A stretch of DNA of 46,760 nucleotides from a virus. The stretch is taken from IMG/VR virus record IMGVR_UViG_3300025782_000022; one strand, given 5' to 3'. A model generated the notes under the pieces. The model ran no database searches. It saw nothing but the letters and a program-made list of their open reading frames with translations, and was not told the origin of the DNA. This document shows positions 1 through 46,760 of this stretch, piece after piece. Position numbers and translations under genes: made by a program. Positions within the stretch are counted from its first letter, which is position 1; every line of letters begins with the position of its first letter.

Positions 1-127
1 AATTGCGCAATTTATTCCTGGCGGATTGTTGCCGATTACTGTTTTGACTGAAATGTTTGATATTCCAGGAATTGAAGAAGGTCAATTTTTTGCGCATTAC
101 AAGCCTTTGCCTGGAAGCACATTAGCA
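1..127. repeat. Terminal closure overlap; bases 1-127 match 46634-46760
   Basis: Compared by eye base by base: aattgcgcaatttattcctggcgg...ctggaagcacattagca occurs at both ends. This implies a circular or circularly permuted contig of 46633 bp. Confidence 0.95.
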
Positions 128-29545: not shown

Positions 29546-30214
29546 GTGCTATTTAAAAACTTAATAAATAATACATTTGTTGTTGCAATTGATGGATTGG
29601 AACAAGATTATTTGCGAGATAAAAATTATCGAATAGCTAGGGATTCTGATTTTAAAGAATCGGAACATCCAAGAGATGCTGACGGTAAATTTGCATCATC
29701 TGGAAACACCAAAAGCCAAGAAGGTACTTTGGAAAGAATGAAAAAAGAAGTTCCAGAATCAGTTGAGAATGAAATATTTGGTGAAACTGGATATATATAT
29801 TACACACCCCATAGACCAATTGAAAATTCTCAAGAAAAAATGTTAGGCACAAAAATTAAACCTTTACATGAAAGAGTTTTTGTATCTGATAAACCATTAA
29901 GTTCTGATAAATTAAATGACATTGAAGCAATACCAATTTCTCAAGAATCAAAGCATCAATTTGCTAAAGAATTAGCCGATTCGGGAGTTGTTGGGATGAT
30001 GAACAAAGATGGTAAAAGATTTTCTTTTGTTCATAAAAGCACAAAACACGATGGAAAAATACAAATAACCTATTATGATAAAAGTGGTGCAATTCTTGAT
30101 AGTCAACATAATGATAGAGCATCGGCTATTGAAGAATTAATTGAAGGTGGATTTATGAAAATTTTGCCTGAAGAAAAAGTAGGTTCATTGATTCAAAAAG
30201 TTATGGTGGGTTAA
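29546..30214 (+). CDS. EHPRD-xx-GKF leader protein 1 (222 aa, unknown C-terminal domain)
   Basis: GTG start. DFKESEHPRDADGKFASSG at 29663..29692. The N-terminal roughly 55 aa is paralogous to the next gene. Confidence 0.7.
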   Translation: MLFKNLINNTFVVAIDGLEQDYLRDKNYRIARDSDFKESEHPRDADGKFASSGNTKSQEGTLERMKKEVPESVENEIFGETGYIYYTPHRPIENSQEKMLGTKIKPLHERVFVSDKPLSSDKLNDIEAIPISQESKHQFAKELADSGVVGMMNKDGKRFSFVHKSTKHDGKIQITYYDKSGAILDSQHNDRASAIEELIEGGFMKILPEEKVGSLIQKVMVG

Positions 30215-31387
30215 ATGAAATTTAAAAATATTAAAACAGGCAATATTATTAATCTTCATGAACGGCTTATGCCGCTTTTTAAGTTTGTAATTCGTTCAGA
30301 CGAATATGTTTTTGTAAACGATGATTTTAAAGAACATGAACACCCAAGAGACCCAAGCGGAAAATTTACTTCTGGCGGTGGTGGTGGGGGCGCATCAGTT
30401 GAGCCTACCAAGACAGAAAAGCCAAGTTTGGAATTGTTAAAAGCGTATAACAAAGGCTTGAAAGAAATGCCAGGTTCGCCTAAGCAAAAGGAAACTTTGC
30501 AAGAAATCGAAAAGCTAAGAAGTTCTGAACCTGCACCAACTGAAAAACCCGCAGAAAAAAAAGGCAGAGGATTTGAAAAAGGCGGCGTTGATAAGCATGG
30601 ATTTGAAAGATCACCAGGACTAACCCCAAAACAAAGGCGAGTTGAAGGAACTTTTTACAACGCCATCAGAACCAATCAGCAACAATTGATTTCTGATTAT
30701 TGGCAAGCAATGAAGAAAGAAAAGTTTTTCAATACTATTGATGCTGACCAGGTTAAGAAATTAAGCCCTGCGTTCAGAAAAGATATGTCGATGGTTGGCG
30801 CAGTCCATGAGCCAAGTTCTCATTTGTCAAAAGTCATTTACAAACAAGCGTTAGAGAAAAAAGCCAGAGAAAACGATAAAAGCCCAACAATGTTTACAGC
30901 AGGTGGAAGCGGTTCAGGAAAGTCGGCTACTTCCCCCCTTGCGGCATCTATGTTTGGATTGAAGGACGATAACCTGGTTTACGATTCGGTTATGTCAACA
31001 TTCAAATCGTCCAAGCGCAAAGTTGACGAAGCACTTGATATGACCGAAGGTGATGCGGTGATTGTTTACACCAATACGCCTATTGAAAGGGCTTTAAAGT
31101 TCAACGCAATGCGTTCTAGGTCTGTATCTATTGACGTTCTAATTGAAGCGCATATGGGCGCATCTAAGACGGTGCATGAGATGCACGAACATTACAAAGA
31201 CAATCCGAGAGTTAAGATGCAAATTATCAATAATTTTGACGAACCGCATAATGTGCATTTGGGTACATTAAAAGGCGTATTTAAATACGACCCCGCAGTT
31301 ACCAGGCAAAAATTGGAACGCCAAGCTAAAGAAATGTTTGCTAAAGGCGAAATAGGTAAGGACAAGTTAAAAACACTTCTAGGGTAG
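30215..31387 (+). CDS. EHPRD-xx-GKF leader protein 2 with C-terminal zeta-toxin-like P-loop kinase domain
   Basis: DFKEHEHPRDPSGKFTSGGGGGG (30338..30367). ...VHEPSSHLSKVIY... is followed by the Walker A TAGGSGSGKS (30902..30925). Confidence 0.65.
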   Translation: MKFKNIKTGNIINLHERLMPLFKFVIRSDEYVFVNDDFKEHEHPRDPSGKFTSGGGGGGASVEPTKTEKPSLELLKAYNKGLKEMPGSPKQKETLQEIEKLRSSEPAPTEKPAEKKGRGFEKGGVDKHGFERSPGLTPKQRRVEGTFYNAIRTNQQQLISDYWQAMKKEKFFNTIDADQVKKLSPAFRKDMSMVGAVHEPSSHLSKVIYKQALEKKARENDKSPTMFTAGGSGSGKSATSPLAASMFGLKDDNLVYDSVMSTFKSSKRKVDEALDMTEGDAVIVYTNTPIERALKFNAMRSRSVSIDVLIEAHMGASKTVHEMHEHYKDNPRVKMQIINNFDEPHNVHLGTLKGVFKYDPAVTRQKLERQAKEMFAKGEIGKDKLKTLLG

Positions 31388-33558: not shown

Positions 33559-34056
33559 ATGAAAAGAACACCAAGTATCCCCGCCCAAGCCGCTACGATG
33601 ATTAGAAATTATCTAAAAGCAAACAACATTGCAGGTAGCGTAAAAAGTGAAATTTATAGCATGGGCAGTAGCGTTAATGTTTACGTTACTGACATAGAGC
33701 CAGAAGTATTAGACAAATTAAGAACCTTTGCTAATCAATTCCAATACGGTCGTTTTGACGGTATGCAAGACCTTTACGAATACACAAATAGTAGAGATGA
33801 CCTGCCCCAAGTCAAATACGTTTTTGTTAACAACACACTTAGCCCTGAACTTAGTCAAGAGATTTGGAACTTTGCCAGAAACTATTACGCAGGAATGGAA
33901 GATGCGCCAGAAGATCAAGCCCTGGCAAGCAAGTTTTATAACCCACAAATGAATGAATACGGCAACACCATTATTTGGATGTTGTTCGATGGTAAATACA
34001 TGAGGGATGGTTACTGGAATTTTGCGAAAGGTATTGAGGAAGTTTTAGAGGCTTAA
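33559..34056 (+). CDS. Hypothetical protein (165 aa), possibly an LPD-type (polyvalent-protein-associated) domain
   Basis: ...IAGSVKSEIYSMGSSVNVYVTD...QYGRFDGMQDLYEYTN...PQVKYVFVN. From memory this resembles a domain seen in conjugative-element and phage polyvalent proteins. Unverified. Confidence 0.6.
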   Translation: MKRTPSIPAQAATMIRNYLKANNIAGSVKSEIYSMGSSVNVYVTDIEPEVLDKLRTFANQFQYGRFDGMQDLYEYTNSRDDLPQVKYVFVNNTLSPELSQEIWNFARNYYAGMEDAPEDQALASKFYNPQMNEYGNTIIWMLFDGKYMRDGYWNFAKGIEEVLEA

Positions 34057-34098: not shown

Positions 34099-34320
34099 AT
34101 GGAAACAAAAACACGAAACAGGGGCGCATTTGGATACGTTCCAAATCCTAGCGAAATAATACTTGCCAGGGGTAATTTATCTCAAGCCAAATGCGCTTCT
34201 TTAATTTATACTACCCAAGTTCGTTGGAGCAATTACGAAAACGGCAAAAGTCGAATACATCCTGCGATGTGGGAATTATTTCTTGAAAAACGAAAAAGGC
34301 TAAGTAATGACGTTTTATGA
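34099..34320 (+). CDS. Small HTH (XRE-like) DNA-binding protein (73 aa)
   Basis: LSQAKCASLIYTTQVRWSNYENGKSRIHPAMWELF is a helix-turn-helix-like pattern. It overlaps the MuF-like gene start. Confidence 0.55.
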   Translation: METKTRNRGAFGYVPNPSEIILARGNLSQAKCASLIYTTQVRWSNYENGKSRIHPAMWELFLEKRKRLSNDVL

Positions 34321-35110
34321 AGTTTTGACCGAAGCAATTAACGACATAATGGAATATGGGTTCGATTCTGAAAAAAGACTTCAGGATTGGATGGAAACAA
34401 TTAAAATTGCCGCTTACAACAGTTTAATCCCTGAATCGCAGGTCGAGCAGGAAATGATTAAAGCAATGACCGCCGCATATACCAGATTGGTCGTAAAGGG
34501 CGGATTGGTCAGAAAAAACGTCACCAAATACGATGTTGAACGGCTTAAGCCAAAATTAAGAAACGAACTAGACCGCAGAATTTCAACTGCGGCTAACCTT
34601 ATTAAATTAAACCGCCAAGAAGCCATTAGCAACACCCTGCGAAGGTTTCAAGGATGGGCAACGTCCATACCCCCAGGCGGTAGCAAAGTAACGGACAGGA
34701 ACAAAACTAAGAAGGATATTAGAAAATCCTTGAGTGCTATTACTTTTGAACAACGCAGGGTTGTAATAGATCAAACCCATAAATTGGTTTCAAATATTAA
34801 TGATATTGTTGCGGTTGATAACGGCGCAATTGCGGCGAAGTGGCATAGTCATTGGCGGCAGGTAAACTATGATTACAGAAAAGATCATAAAGAACGTGAC
34901 GATAAGATATATATTATTCGCAACTCATGGGCGGACGAAAAGGGATATTTAAAGCATCCCAATGGTTATACCGATGAAATAACGCAACCAGGCGAAGAAG
35001 TATTTTGTAGGTGCAATTACCAATACATCTACAATTTAAGTTCGGTAAAAGAATTGTTGACAACAAAGGGCGAAAAAGCACTACAATCTGCCAAAATTAC
35101 TTTTAAATAA
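34307..35110 (+). CDS. Head morphogenesis protein, SPP1 gp7 / Mu F-like
   Basis: C-terminal ...WHSHWRQVNYDYRKDHKERDDKIYII...PGEEVFCRCNYQYIY (H...PG..CRC signature). Confidence 0.7.
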   Translation: MTFYEVLTEAINDIMEYGFDSEKRLQDWMETIKIAAYNSLIPESQVEQEMIKAMTAAYTRLVVKGGLVRKNVTKYDVERLKPKLRNELDRRISTAANLIKLNRQEAISNTLRRFQGWATSIPPGGSKVTDRNKTKKDIRKSLSAITFEQRRVVIDQTHKLVSNINDIVAVDNGAIAAKWHSHWRQVNYDYRKDHKERDDKIYIIRNSWADEKGYLKHPNGYTDEITQPGEEVFCRCNYQYIYNLSSVKELLTTKGEKALQSAKITFK

Positions 35111-35113
35111 TTT

Positions 35114-37561
35114 ATGCCATTTGAATCGGAAGCCCAAAGAAAAGCTATGTATGCCGCCGCAAGCGGTCATGGCAATATTGGCATCCCTAAAGAAGTGGCA
35201 AAGAAATTTATTAAACACTCAGAAGACGGCGATATTCCTGAAGAATCTACGCCCCTTGCAACTCCCGAATTTAAAGAAGATGATGCTGACCCTTGTTGGG
35301 AAGGTTACAAACAATTAGGAATGAAGCAAAAAGGCGGCAAAGAAGTGCCCAATTGCGTTCCAGAGGATGATTCTGAGGCTTGGGAGACCAAGGAAGGTAA
35401 GAATAAAAAAGGCGGTTTAAATGCCAAAGGCAGGGCTTCTTACAACAAAGAGCATGGCGCACATTTAAAAGCCCCTCAACCTGAAGGCGGGTCAAGGAAA
35501 GAATCATTTTGCGCCCGAATGTCAGGCATGAAAGAAAAGCTAACTTCTGACAAAACAAAACACGACCCAAATTCCAGGATTAATTTAGCATTAAAAAAAT
35601 GGAAGTGCGATGCTGATTGGGATAGTTCCAAAGTTCAATCAGAATTAAAAGGCTTGTCAGCCAAATTAGCAGAAATTACTAAAAGTATTACAACTTTAAA
35701 AGCTGATGATTTAGCCGTTGAAAGAATTGCAACTGGTTCAAAATCTGATGCTATGCCAATTGACAAAGATGCAGGGGCATTAGGTCGTGCCGCAGGAATA
35801 ATGTTTTTGACCAATGACGGCAAAGTATTATTGATTCGCAGGGGAGATGGTGGCGATTATCCTCAAACTTGGGCAGTACCAGGCGGTCATCAAAATAAAG
35901 AAGATGCAAACTTAGAAGAAGCGGCTAGGCGTGAATGTTTTGAAGAAACAGGTATCAAGTACGAAGGCAAGTTGGAAGTATTATTTGATGACGGTCAATT
36001 TTGTACTTATATTGCCAGAAATTTTGAGCAAGTTCCAGTAACTTTGAACCATGAATCAACTGGATTTGATTGGTGTCATGTTGATAATCCCCCAATGCCT
36101 TTGCACCCAGGACAAAATATTTGTTTCAAAATTGCAAGTGCAAAAACAGAATTCGATTATGCTGAATTAATTAGGCAAGATTTATTGCCAAGCCCTCAAA
36201 TGTATGCTAATGTTATGCTATTAGCTATTCGCATTACAGGAACAGGGTTAGCTTATCGTTCAAGTATTGGTGAGCACGTTTGGCGTGATTCCAGTTTATA
36301 TTTGAATGATGACTTTTTAAAGCGTTGTAATGGGTTGATTGTGATAATGGATCACCCTGAAACTGCGGTTTTGACTTCCAAGGAATTCAAGGACAGAGCA
36401 GTTGGAAGTATTATTCTGCCTTATATTAAGGGAGATGAAGTTTGGGGTATTGCGAAAATCTACGACCAAGATGCGGTAAACACCATTTTGACCGAAGAAG
36501 TTAGCACTAGCCCATCTGTTGTTTTTGACCAAACAGCAGGTAACACGACACTAACGACTGAGAATGGAGAGCCACTCTTGATCGAAGGTGTACCATTTCT
36601 TTTAGATCATATTGCTATCGTAACTGAAGCAAGGGGTTCTAAAGGAGTATGGGACAAGGGTGGCGAACCCGCAGGAGTATTATTAACTAACCAAGAGGTA
36701 TCTGAAATGACAGACAACAAAGTAGAGCCGAAAGCAGATGCTCAAGGCGATAAACTAGATGCCATTCTTTCGGCTCTCAGCTCCATGAGTGTGAGAATTG
36801 ATGAGATGGAAAAAAATCTTCCCGCCCCTCCACTCGTTACTGCCGCTGATAAAAAGCGCAAAGACGAAGATGCGAAAATGGACGATGATGATGAGGAATC
36901 AGAATCAGAAGCCAAACACTTCATGGAACGCAAAATGGATTCCAAAAAGCGTAAAGATGAAGATATGGAAGAAAAGCACATGGAATCAAGAAAAGCAGAT
37001 AAGCATCGTAAAGATGATGATGACGAAGATGACATGAAAAAAGCCAAGAAAGATGCCGAAGGCTCTGACATGGGCGAAGAAAAAATGCCCTCAGGTGAAA
37101 TGAAGCCTGATGACGATGATGCCAAGAAGGATGAAGAAGCTATGAAGATGGACGAAGCCGCCGCAGAATACGCAGATGCACAAGCAAAATGCGATTCAGT
37201 TTTAGCCGCTTTTGGTAAGTCAGCTTCCCGCCCACTACAAGGCGAATCATTGATGGCTTATAGGAAACGTCTTCTCAGAGGATTGCAAGCGTATTCTGAT
37301 AGCTACAAGGATATTAACCTTGCAACTATAAAAGATGCAAAATTACTCGAATTAGCTGAAAAGCAAATTATGAATGATGCAATGACTGCCGCAAGAACAT
37401 CTAGTCATGTTCCTGGAGATCAATTGATTGCTATTCAATCAAGAGATTCAAGCGGTCGTACAATCACTAAGTATCGTGGTTCAATGGAAGCATGGCTTGG
37501 CGATTTCAAAGTTCCTCCACAAAGAGCAACTACTTTCCATACACCTAACAACCAACGCTAA
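35114..37561 (+). CDS. Multidomain head protein (815 aa): N-terminal small motifs, Nudix hydrolase domain, prohead protease/scaffold-like (DUF2213-like) region, K/D/E-rich low-complexity segment, C-terminal scaffold-like tail
   Basis: Nudix box GGHQNKEDANLEEAARRECFEETGI (aa 257-281). ...LIVIMDHPE...VGSIILPYIKGDEVWGIAKIYD. Charged repeat region at aa 578-685. It lies between the MuF-like and capsid genes. Confidence 0.75.
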   Translation: MPFESEAQRKAMYAAASGHGNIGIPKEVAKKFIKHSEDGDIPEESTPLATPEFKEDDADPCWEGYKQLGMKQKGGKEVPNCVPEDDSEAWETKEGKNKKGGLNAKGRASYNKEHGAHLKAPQPEGGSRKESFCARMSGMKEKLTSDKTKHDPNSRINLALKKWKCDADWDSSKVQSELKGLSAKLAEITKSITTLKADDLAVERIATGSKSDAMPIDKDAGALGRAAGIMFLTNDGKVLLIRRGDGGDYPQTWAVPGGHQNKEDANLEEAARRECFEETGIKYEGKLEVLFDDGQFCTYIARNFEQVPVTLNHESTGFDWCHVDNPPMPLHPGQNICFKIASAKTEFDYAELIRQDLLPSPQMYANVMLLAIRITGTGLAYRSSIGEHVWRDSSLYLNDDFLKRCNGLIVIMDHPETAVLTSKEFKDRAVGSIILPYIKGDEVWGIAKIYDQDAVNTILTEEVSTSPSVVFDQTAGNTTLTTENGEPLLIEGVPFLLDHIAIVTEARGSKGVWDKGGEPAGVLLTNQEVSEMTDNKVEPKADAQGDKLDAILSALSSMSVRIDEMEKNLPAPPLVTAADKKRKDEDAKMDDDDEESESEAKHFMERKMDSKKRKDEDMEEKHMESRKADKHRKDDDDEDDMKKAKKDAEGSDMGEEKMPSGEMKPDDDDAKKDEEAMKMDEAAAEYADAQAKCDSVLAAFGKSASRPLQGESLMAYRKRLLRGLQAYSDSYKDINLATIKDAKLLELAEKQIMNDAMTAARTSSHVPGDQLIAIQSRDSSGRTITKYRGSMEAWLGDFKVPPQRATTFHTPNNQR

Positions 37562-37573
37562 GAGGACTAAATT

Positions 37574-38194
37574 ATGTCAAGTTCAATTGCTCTCAGCCCA
37601 ATGCTGACCACAAATGCGCAAGGTTTATTTAACGTAAATTCCCAGGGTTATACCCAGGGCGATGCGCTAGATGACCCCGCAGTCAAGTTTGCTTTAGCAG
37701 GTGGCGTTTATTCAGCCGCCGCAACTAGCCCAATTTGGGGTGGTATTCCAATTCAAGAATTTAGTCCTGGGGCTTCTGGTCAGCCAGGTACTAATACCCT
37801 TGGAAGCACAATTTCTGCCGCAACAGGAAGTGCCGCACCAACAGGTATCTTGGTTTACAACCAGGCTTACCAAGGAATTACAACTCCACAGTCAACTGCG
37901 CCGTTGTTTACTCCTGGTATGTCAGTTAACTACTACCGTTTTGGTTCTGGCGCAAGGATTCCTTTGGTTATTGAACCCGCTTCACTAACAATCGAAGGTC
38001 AATTGATTAGCACAACAGTTTATTATGATTACACTAATAACTGGGTTACTGTTACTCAGCCTGGCACTCAACCTGCACTTCCAGTAAAAGTTTTGAATGT
38101 AAGTACAACTGGTAATAAGACTGTTAGCTATTCAAGCGGAACAGGCTTTGCCAATTGGATTTATACCCAAAACGTGGCGTTGTGCCTAATCTAA
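37574..38194 (+). CDS. Hypothetical head structural protein (206 aa)
   Basis: Lies between the scaffold-like gene and the major capsid gene. SD aggact. Confidence 0.6.
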   Translation: MSSSIALSPMLTTNAQGLFNVNSQGYTQGDALDDPAVKFALAGGVYSAAATSPIWGGIPIQEFSPGASGQPGTNTLGSTISAATGSAAPTGILVYNQAYQGITTPQSTAPLFTPGMSVNYYRFGSGARIPLVIEPASLTIEGQLISTTVYYDYTNNWVTVTQPGTQPALPVKVLNVSTTGNKTVSYSSGTGFANWIYTQNVALCLI

Positions 38195-38209: not shown

Positions 38210-39235
38210 ATGTCAGGATTTGCACCGTCATTCGTCACAGTTAACCCCCACTTTATGTTGCCTGAGTTAATCATGCAATATAGCTTGGCTTCTGGCGCAT
38301 TTACAACACTAGCAACTGAAAACCCAATGCCCCGCCTTGGTGAAGCAGACTTGTACGTTTATGCTAAGAAAATCCAGTTAACTTCACAAGTTCAGTCTAA
38401 TCAATCACAGTTTAATCAATTGCCTAGCGCATCGGTTATCCCATCAATGATTAGCACCGCAACTTACCGTATGTCAACTCGTGCTCAGTACGATAACTTT
38501 GATGAAGCCGCAACTGGCGTTTGGGGCTATGCGCTTCCAGAAGCTATGCGTTTAGGCGCAAGACAAGGTATCGCACAACAAATGCGTAATGCGTTGTTAT
38601 ACGGTTTCAACCCTGCAAACGGCGAAGGCTTGATTAATACATCAGGCGCAACCGCAGTTAATTTGGGTTCTGATACAAACGGTAACACAGGTTATTCCAC
38701 TTGGGATAGTGGTCAACTTGCTCAGTATATGCTGAACATGATTGGCGCACTCAAGGTTCGTACCCTGCAAATCGGTCAACCTTTGCGTTTAGTATTCTTA
38801 GCACCACAAAGATTCATCAGCCAAATTTCATATTCTGGCGTTGTTTCTTTAACCCAGTTCCAACGAATTGGCGCAGGTGTAGAGACTGCCGCAGGTTTGA
38901 TTGAGACTGTTGCAAAGTGGGCAGGTGGTGATGATGTAGTTTTCGCCGCTGATGACACTTTAATTGGTCAAGGTTCTGGCGGTACAGATGCGATCATTTT
39001 GATTGCTCCTGAACTCAAGATTCCTAAAGCCAACAACAAGATCAACACCAACGTATTTGCTACATTGACACCTAATATCACCGCAACTTCTTTAATGTTG
39101 ACAGATGTTAGCGCACCAACAGAAATACCTACCCCCATCGCTGATGGCGGTATTACAACTCTGTACACAATGCGTTCAACTTCTGGTTGGGGTATTCGTC
39201 CTGAAGCATTGACAATCCTTTCTGCCGCATATTAA
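38210..39235 (+). CDS. Major capsid protein (putative)
   Basis: 341 aa with a strong SD (aaggaga) and a terminator hairpin downstream. Synteny fits. The family (DUF2184-like) is a guess. Confidence 0.7.
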   Translation: MSGFAPSFVTVNPHFMLPELIMQYSLASGAFTTLATENPMPRLGEADLYVYAKKIQLTSQVQSNQSQFNQLPSASVIPSMISTATYRMSTRAQYDNFDEAATGVWGYALPEAMRLGARQGIAQQMRNALLYGFNPANGEGLINTSGATAVNLGSDTNGNTGYSTWDSGQLAQYMLNMIGALKVRTLQIGQPLRLVFLAPQRFISQISYSGVVSLTQFQRIGAGVETAAGLIETVAKWAGGDDVVFAADDTLIGQGSGGTDAIILIAPELKIPKANNKINTNVFATLTPNITATSLMLTDVSAPTEIPTPIADGGITTLYTMRSTSGWGIRPEALTILSAAY

Positions 39236-46565: not shown

Positions 46566-46760
46566 ATGAGTTCTTTTGGTCAAACCGCATTTCAAGCCGC
46601 ATACGAAATATCGCCCATTATTTTGCAAAATGGAATTGCGCAATTTATTCCTGGCGGATTGTTGCCGATTACTGTTTTGACTGAAATGTTTGATATTCCA
46701 GGAATTGAAGAAGGTCAATTTTTTGCGCATTACAAGCCTTTGCCTGGAAGCACATTAGCA
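46566..46760 (+). CDS. 5' part of a wrap-around tail/baseplate-module gene (continues at 1..544; about 203 aa once the overlap is collapsed)
   Basis: ATG at 46566 follows SD-like tgaggattgt, directly after the tape-measure stop. The frame runs open to the window end and is in phase with ORF 26..544 (46634 = position 1). Confidence 0.8.
   Translation, partial: MSSFGQTAFQAAYEISPIILQNGIAQFIPGGLLPITVLTEMFDIPGIEEGQFFAHYKPLPGSTLA
46634..46760. repeat. Second copy of the 127-bp closure overlap
   Basis: Same 127 bases as 1-127. Confidence 0.95.

Follow-up and report, generated by a model that had tools for sequence, protein, structure and literature searches.

Why does a phage gene that appears to encode a head assembly protein carry a Nudix hydrolase domain near its N-terminal end, and where would such an enzyme act? 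This question is raised by the gene at 35114..37561 (+ strand) of the IMG/VR virus record IMGVR_UViG_3300025782_000022, whose whole stretch of 46,760 nucleotides (nt) is called the window here. The open reading frame (ORF) encodes 815 amino acids (aa). The initial annotation, made from the sequence alone, had read it as a protease/scaffold-like polyprotein with an embedded Nudix domain that is likely to be packaged and possibly ejected. In the reading that we favor, and to which we assign a probability of about 50%, the Nudix domain is carried into the head, retained there, and ejected as cargo of a protease-scaffold.

An alignment of 123 homologues revealed five conserved blocks in the protein: aa 1-55, an optional DUF6321 domain, the Nudix domain, aa 346-531, which are very strongly conserved, and aa 681-815. 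The initial annotation had listed the Nudix domain, a DUF2213-like segment, a charged low-complexity region, and a scaffold-like tail, all of which were recovered (the latter two as aa 583-680 and the conserved aa 681-815), but it had overlooked the N-terminal peptide and DUF6321. The complete layout is as follows.

35114..37561, + strand: whole 815-aa gene, with N-terminal peptide, DUF6321, Nudix, predicted prohead protease (DUF2213), scaffold, and tail in this order
35114..35278, + strand: conserved N-terminal peptide, aa 1-55, MPFxSExQRKAMYAAA..GIP..V.KKFIKH (homologue alignment)
35396..35602, + strand: DUF6321 domain, aa 95-163 (Pfam E 9.5e-21)
35777..36148, + strand: Nudix hydrolase domain, T4 NudE-like by pairwise similarity, aa 222-345 (Pfam, PDB sequences, T4 NudE alignment)
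35885..35956, + strand: Nudix box GHQNKEDANLEEAARRECFEETGI, aa 258-281, catalytic core R273 E274 .. E277 E278. G280 I281
36149..36706, + strand: predicted prohead serine protease domain (DUF2213 core), aa 346-531 (fold model, Pfam, conserved residues)
36353-36355, 36503-36505, and 36608-36610, + strand: candidate triad His414, Ser464, and His499 (residue conservation)
36693..36699, + strand: internal Shine-Dalgarno-like AAGAGGT ahead of the Met532 ATG
36707..37561, + strand: predicted nested scaffold ORF, Met532-Arg815, 284 aa, in the frame of the full-length protein
36860..37153, + strand: acidic low-complexity spacer, aa 583-680 (42% D+E, 24% K+R), whose length differs between homologues
37154..37558, + strand: conserved C-terminal tail, aa 681-815 (homologue alignment)

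Nudix domain, predicted protease core, and predicted nested scaffold start

Pfam NUDIX (PF00293) matched aa 224-325 with an E-value of 1.2e-14 (54.9 bits, cut-off 21.1), and searches of PDB sequences with either the protein or a family profile returned Nudix enzymes only (AtNUDX1, NudG, RenU, MutT, Ap4A hydrolases, Dcp2, and DIPPs). These matches confirmed the domain originally placed at aa 222-335, which correspond exactly to 35777-36118. The Pfam E-value and the conservation of the box across homologues ruled out a chance match as the source of the signal.

The REUXEEXGU core of the box is complete in the query (R273-E274-C275-F276-E277-E278-T279-G280-I281). The one-residue insertion relative to GX5EX7REUXEEXGU that had been pointed out earlier is also real, and the query does not fit the strict 23-residue spacing. 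The family consensus is fully canonical (GGHQ-KE-GETLEEAARRE..EETGI); a full canonical box was present in 100 of the 123 aligned homologues, and the REUXEEXG core was kept in 121, whereas the longer box loop of the query was common to 21.

The closest characterized counterpart is NudE of phage T4 (gene e.1). BLASTP aligned it with the query Nudix domain at 32% identity over 104 aa (E 7e-11), ungapped through the box, and tblastn with the domain found many T4-like nudE genes at 33-36%. Both proteins share an AARREC.EETG core and a box that is one residue longer than the canonical form, with Asp in T4 NudE at the position equivalent to the first Glu. On pairwise similarity, without a tree, we class the query domain as T4 NudE-like. 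T4 NudE, in contrast, is a stand-alone 146-aa protein, encoded beside the lysozyme gene and not fused to any head protein. According to PMC9503650, it hydrolyzes ADP-ribose (ADPR), flavin adenine dinucleotide (FAD), and Ap3A.

We therefore do not take the longer spacing as a sign of decay, because T4 NudE has the same spacing and is reported to be active. A decayed or catalytically dead domain would be in keeping with a box that lies one residue off the signature and has Ala or Asp at the first Glu position. Against this stand the equivalent Asp of T4 NudE, the intact metal-binding REUXEE residues, the recurrence of the variant among homologues, and the strong conservation of the entire domain, and we regard a dead enzyme as very improbable.

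Pfam DUF2213 (PF09979) matched aa 388-508 above its cut-off (E 6.4e-07, 30 bits, cut-off 22), in agreement with the DUF2213-like segment of the initial annotation, and precomputed matches were labeled Pa193_gp24. A sequence-profile search of the PDB detected no DUF2213 relative; the profile had retained the Nudix columns and gave Nudix enzymes alone. Using an alignment of 150 diverse representatives, we predicted the structure of aa 346-540 with a predicted local distance difference test (pLDDT) score of 92.8 and a predicted template modeling score of 0.87. A model of aa 346-815 from a shallow alignment reached a pLDDT of 45 and was set aside, with no fold search on it.

The first match of the aa 346-540 model in a PDB fold search was the T4 gp21 capsid assembly protease, with a probability of 0.98. 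It was followed by the assemblins of Epstein-Barr virus, pseudorabies virus, herpes simplex virus, human cytomegalovirus, and Kaposi's sarcoma-associated herpesvirus (probability 0.8-0.98). In BFVD, a database of predicted viral structures, the model gave 125 matches at E <= 1e-3 with TMq values of 0.5-0.6, mostly to proteins named "prohead serine protease," HK97 proheadase, COG3740, T4 U9 peptidase, and DUF2213 proteins.

Residue conservation points in the same direction. Across 150 clusters of DUF2213 proteins, His414, Thr465-Ser466, and Glu491 were invariant, and Ser464 and Asp498-His499 were nearly so. Out to the distant proteins PB1 gp22, JD001 gp23, and that of Bm1 (19-28% identity), His414, Ser464, and His499 were still invariant; Ser464 lies within L-S-x-G-Y in these distant members, and Ser466 is invariant in the near family. 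The order His414...Ser464...His499 is the one expected of prohead serine proteases. The modeled fold and these residues led us to assign DUF2213 to the prohead serine proteases of the HK97/T4/assemblin fold, with His414-Ser464-His499 as the probable candidate catalytic set, and this substantiates the "protease/scaffold-like" label given earlier.

PB1 gp22 (locus L090, 5172-6569) and Pa193 gp24, each called a "putative scaffolding protein," also retain the His/Ser/His of the DUF2213 core and are probably protease-scaffold fusions, as judged from their sequences. PMC11456595 describes Pa193 gp24 as a scaffolding protein and makes no mention of a protease. Reading DUF2213/Pa193_gp24 as a protease-scaffold with a nested start bears on how the head structures of Pa193/PB1-type phages are interpreted.

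The second half of this reading rests on the boundary between protease and scaffold, where Met532 is nearly invariant, as is the Glu-Val-Ser just before it. In the query, AAGAGG is followed after 8 nt by ATG at 36707 (signal and start together, 36693-36709). The Glu codon inside this Shine-Dalgarno-like signal is GAG in 80 of 80 related IMG/VR loci, which comprise about 18 distinct nucleotide haplotypes, compared with a background GAG usage of 20% of Glu codons (1094/5487) in the same genes. Because the GAG and the ATG are conserved while the neighboring codons vary synonymously, we inferred a nested start. An equivalent signal is found at the same boundary in PdC23 (GAGG, 8 nt, ATG) and in Rac-SA53 (AGGTG, then ATG). 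Together, these comparisons provide good evidence for a predicted internal start yielding a nested 284-aa scaffold protein. The full-length start ATG lacks a Shine-Dalgarno sequence and lies 3 nt past the TAA of the MuF-like gene, which fits a low-abundance full-length product translationally coupled to that gene.

Such a layout has precedents. The protease genes of the lambda C/Nu3 and Mu I/Z systems also encode a C-terminal scaffold, which is made by itself from an in-frame internal start. The query resembles these systems in having its scaffold start nested in the protease gene, with the second product predicted here, and differs from them in carrying an additional enzymatic cargo ahead of the protease.

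Exchange of the N-terminal cargo

The 815-aa protein has more than 1,085 homologues in a large protein database. Nearly all of the 120 best combined NUDIX with DUF2213, and about a third contained DUF6321 too. The DUF2213 core alone found 786 clusters (50% identity), the 150 best of which were surveyed by scoring the N-terminal state with regular expressions and by Pfam on a 10-protein sample. Approximately 57% of these 150 had a Nudix box upstream of the core, about 28-35% had no extension, and about 9% had another N-terminal sequence, with the proviso that some "short" proteins may be truncated gene calls. The fusion is thus common, with over 1,000 homologues and a presence in over half of the closest DUF2213 protease clusters.

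Proteins with and without Nudix are interspersed. For 26 of the 52 Nudix-less clusters, the nearest neighbor bears a Nudix domain, and 9 of the 19 groupings with core identities of at least about 65% were mixed. In Rac-SA53 and Actinobacillus pPE4, both complete cultured genomes, the protein is Nudix-less with a core identity to the query of 55%, compared with 44% for the Nudix-bearing PdC23. A survey of homologous genes for presence or absence of the insert had been proposed with the initial annotation; its outcome is that the module has been gained and lost. These sequence comparisons show that Nudix behaves as an accessory, exchangeable module of the protease-scaffold.

Other domains take the Nudix slot in relatives. 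One of them (P0206) has a PBECR1 toxin-type ribonuclease, another (P0259) has a lysozyme-like domain scoring 26.9 bits, just under the cut-off, and a third (P0163) carries DUF5710 in addition to Nudix at its N-terminus. Both PBECR1 and lysozyme are domains characteristic of the polyvalent effectors embedded in virions, in which assemblin-like peptidases are always C-terminal (PMC5512222). As a place to attach foreign proteins that are to be loaded into capsids, the protease N-terminus appears to be a natural choice.

This pattern bears on a role for the Nudix domain in assembly itself, where it would regulate or assist the protease or capsid maturation rather than act on the host, for example through nucleotide-dependent activation of the protease or action on a ligand inside the procapsid. 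Such a role would suit the direct abutment of Nudix and protease, the conserved junction between them, and the high frequency of the fusion in the protease lineage. Many close relatives nevertheless assemble without Nudix, including the cultured Rac-SA53 and Actinobacillus pPE4, unrelated enzymes fill the slot in some, and Nudix domains of the same clade are found attached to portals or encoded by a separate gene. We consider an assembly-intrinsic function improbable.

The separate gene is found in Bm1, between the MuF and protease genes. The portal case is gp17 of Bcep43 (locus L004, 3288-5372), a head-interior protein that carries a Nudix domain of the same clade with 43% identity to that of the query. 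The two share the motifs EEAARRE..EETG and LN.E.T.FDW..P.PLHP, and the Bcep43 box is canonical. Unlike the query, Bcep43 gp17 carries the domain on the portal C-terminus and not on the protease N-terminus. In GenBank, the protein is described as [quoted passage not shown] and a literature search combining Bcep781 and Nudix returned nothing.

The region ahead of the Nudix domain varies as well. The N-terminal peptide (aa 1-55) is present in nearly all family members, some Nudix-less ones among them, and has no Pfam match. DUF6321 is an optional module that occurs in about a third to 40% of close homologues. At permissive thresholds, Pfam yielded no convincing match to the N-terminal peptide, the nested scaffold, or the tail; its sole hit was a weak coiled-coil at aa 172-194. 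Elsewhere, DUF6321 forms the C-terminus of cyanomyophage proteins from a virion/packaging cluster; in S-H25 (locus L092), it lies between the small terminase and a virion structural protein.

The nearest cultured counterparts are PdC23 gp04 (Pantoea), the proteins of Chronis, RothC, and RothD (Klebsiella), and those of the vB_YenM phages (Yersinia). They have the same order of Nudix, protease, acidic spacer, and tail as the query, with about 40-42% identity over aa 226-814, and belong to phrog_6216. Their genes are placed like that of the query, past the portal and MuF-like genes and ahead of a gene of about 200-290 aa and the capsid gene. The Nudix domain is where these PdC23-type proteins begin; the extension that the N-terminal peptide and DUF6321 form in the query (aa 1-221) is missing from them. 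Those of PdC23 and Chronis are already annotated as "NUDIX hydrolase." Some orthologue labels are apparently misleading: the Yersinia vB_YenM phages have "glycosyl transferase," and Rac-SA53 and Actinobacillus pPE4 have "TolA protein," a name that the charged repeat probably suggested.

Proposed fate of the Nudix domain in the phage head

In the mechanism that we favor, the gene would yield two products: a minor full-length protein coupled to the MuF-like gene and a presumably more abundant 284-aa scaffold starting at Met532. The scaffold and tail common to both would bring both into the procapsid, the Nudix domain entering as cargo, and the C-terminal tail (aa 681-815) is presumed to bind the capsid shell or to target the protein into it. 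The scaffold would then be digested by the protease, whereas the folded Nudix domain would remain in the DNA-filled head and exit together with the DNA when the phage next infects. Once inside the new host, it would hydrolyze a nucleoside-diphosphate-X (NDP-X) compound ahead of any phage gene expression. By analogy with T4 NudE, the likeliest substrates would be ADPR or molecules derived from nicotinamide adenine dinucleotide (NAD), or ApnA/FAD.

The steps of this mechanism differ in strength. Encapsidation through the C-terminal scaffold and tail is likely, because these parts would carry the full-length protein into the procapsid. That the domain stays in the head after scaffold proteolysis and is ejected with the DNA has somewhat less than an even chance. 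Assignment of the substrate to ADPR/NAD-derived or ApnA/FAD-type nucleotides is tentative. The Nudix domain is physically linked to a head-interior assembly protein, here through the protease-scaffold fusion and, for the same clade, on a portal. Co-packaging is plausible and is strengthened by this comparative evidence. If Nudix is indeed carried in the head and ejected, it would constitute a pre-made counter-measure that precedes any phage transcription, directed at nucleotide-based host immunity, host NDP-X pools, or RNA caps.

Delivery of head proteins has well-established models. T4 internal proteins bear a short N-terminal capsid-targeting sequence that is cleaved by gp21, and T4 Alt and the internal proteins differ from the query in using such a cleaved sequence instead of a protease fusion. 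For the T4 and P1 effectors, packaging and ejection have been demonstrated, whereas for the query they are predicted. PMC9503650 states that T4 Alt and the internal proteins are incorporated at head morphogenesis and delivered with the DNA, and the abstract of PMC12810830 describes the P1 anti-defense proteins DarA and Hdf as put in the head at morphogenesis and delivered with the DNA.

The anti-defense idea put forward with the initial annotation is not original, having been published in 2022 for fusions of this class. In PMC9503650, Iyer et al. proposed packaging and injection for NudE-like Nudix domains that are joined to MuF, the portal, or the capsid-processing peptidase, and suggested a role against NAD/ADPR-derived immune signals, as a computational prediction only. 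The query matches this class by its published description there, with a NudE-like Nudix domain and a capsid-processing serine peptidase. The occurrence of the fusion in cultured Klebsiella, Pantoea, and Yersinia phages makes the published prediction directly testable. Our literature search found no experimental account of a Nudix-prohead-protease fusion, no functional study of PdC23-type proteins, and almost nothing functional on DUF2213, and the KlebPhaCol text contains neither Nudix nor Chronis. The architecture is already known from GenBank annotations, phrog_6216, and the 2022 prediction, and the query is set apart by its N-terminal peptide and DUF6321. What the present analysis adds is the case for DUF2213 as a protease (fold and residues), the conserved nested start, the cargo-slot pattern, and a portal-junction motif.

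The namesake of PF09979 provides the closest virion data. According to PMC11456595, Pa193 gp24 was detected by liquid chromatography-mass spectrometry in mature virions, and its residues 286-326 form a helix-turn-helix on the capsid interior at the five-fold vertices. Like the query, Pa193 gp24 and PB1 gp22 have PF09979, the conserved His/Ser/His, and the same gene position.

Several observations weigh against the retention and ejection of an active enzyme as cargo of a protease-scaffold. Nudix and protease are not set apart by a long flexible linker; aa 335-365, where they meet, are conserved, and the helix that opens the protease begins at about aa 347. Because a linker is absent, release by cleavage is not evident, and the domains may work as one unit. 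T4 NudE is not known to be a virion protein. Within the query box, the first Glu of GX5E is replaced by Ala (or by a shifted Asp), and NCBIfam equivalogs gave nothing above cut-off for the query Nudix domain, so its sequence gives no substrate. The PDB fold matches of the protease core had modest TM-scores (0.36-0.44). Pa193 gp24 and PB1 gp22, unlike the query, have no Nudix or other N-terminal cargo and share a core identity of only about 19-20% with it. The Pa193 authors were unable to tell whether gp24 is cleaved or which parts persist (PMC11456595).

Some of these points would also suit an enzyme that acts late in the producing cell. Nudix would then be fused for late, stoichiometric co-expression and act in the cytoplasm, removing ADPR/NAD-derived or other nucleotide signals, and would be lost at maturation, with encapsidated copies degraded or expelled. 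T4 NudE is a stand-alone soluble enzyme whose gene lies beside lysozyme, Bm1 keeps the same Nudix clade as a separate gene, a cleavable linker is not evident, and in other phages, such as HK97 and lambda, heads usually do not keep the prohead protease or scaffold fragments. Against late action speaks the independent placement of the same clade on the C-terminus of the portal, a permanent head component. So do the use of the protease slot for PBECR1 and lysozyme-like domains, which are typical of injected polyvalent effectors, and the persistence of a DUF2213 protein in mature Pa193 virions. We therefore judge late action in the producing cell rather unlikely and prefer delivery from the head.

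Portal-side motif and genome neighborhood

The neighborhood of the gene supports the position assigned to it. A putative small terminase gene is followed by the large terminase, the portal (PF06381), a 4.7-kb insert, the MuF-like gene, the 815-aa gene, a 206-aa gene, and the capsid gene, the last four of which include the following neighbors.

34307..35110, + strand: MuF-like head morphogenesis gene (phrog_324, E 2e-26)
37574..38194, + strand: 206-aa gene (phrog_6268)
38210..39235, + strand: major capsid protein (phrog_6671, E 4e-137; weak PF09950 and phrog_264 matches)

The same order, minus the 4.7-kb insert, is found in PdC23, Rac-SA53, PB1, and JD001. The initial annotation had placed the 815-aa gene between the MuF-like and capsid genes, in the protease/scaffold slot. 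The slot held, with cultured relatives having the same order, but the 206-aa gene intervenes before the capsid gene. This 206-aa gene takes the position of the virion structural/decoration gene of PB1/Pa193-type head modules, a correspondence of position only; pairwise comparison of the 206-aa and capsid proteins with the PB1 decoration and capsid proteins gave no similarity. The PdC23 orthologue of the 206-aa gene is labeled "endosialidase," which looks misleading.

On the other side of the MuF-like gene, the portal gene is immediately followed by two ORFs (29546-30214 and 30215-31387) with a common N-terminal module of about 55 aa, which ends in DFKE(S/H)EHPRD..GKF followed by a Gly/Ser linker, with the motif at about 29666 and 30341. 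Related loci (L017, L020, L029, L050, and L066) show the motif in two settings. It is found either in separate proteins, approximately 41-45 aa from the N-terminus, or around residue ~491-507 of larger proteins (760-1490 aa), in which the portal and a downstream domain form one continuous reading frame. We considered whether a programmed frameshift could connect the portal with the 222-aa ORF that follows it, and rejected this; no slippery site was evident in the window, and the two were treated as separate genes. The sequence pattern suggests that the HPRD..GKF motif marks a second cargo slot or junction at the portal C-terminus. The 390-aa protein (30215-31387) gave a weak Zeta-toxin-like P-loop match (Pfam E 2e-4, 21.2 bits, cut-off 22.3) and is a candidate for a second head-associated enzyme.

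A broader and doubtful proposal is that this phage lineage loads its heads by way of a modular platform, in which two slots accept interchangeable cargo, each virion delivering a customizable enzyme set. The first slot may be the N-terminus of the DUF2213 protease, with Nudix here and PBECR1, lysozyme-like, or DUF5710 plus Nudix domains in relatives. The second may be the portal C-terminus, with a [DE]F.E.[DE]HPRD..GKF-polyGly junction, the motif heading two separate genes in this genome. The N-terminal peptide, DUF6321, and HPRD..GKF may serve as loading, cleavage, or ejection signals. If this proposal is true, the delivered set would include a Nudix domain that destroys an immune nucleotide signal before phage gene expression.

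The insert between the portal and MuF-like genes is made up of small ORFs and is absent from PdC23, Rac-SA53, and PB1. Within it, a 165-aa protein at 33559-34056 has a weak LPD29 match (E 6e-5, 24.1 bits, cut-off 27).

The genome is myovirus-like, with baseplate J, tail collar fiber, RecT/YqaJ, and Rz genes, and megablast of the 26-46 kb part of the window against catalogued phages gave no match. Because ~127 bases recur at both ends of the window (1-127 and 46634-46760), it is a complete, circularly closed assembly of a phage genome of ~46.6 kb. The same 815-aa protein is also encoded on a 46,732-bp contig of the Joint Genome Institute (JGI).

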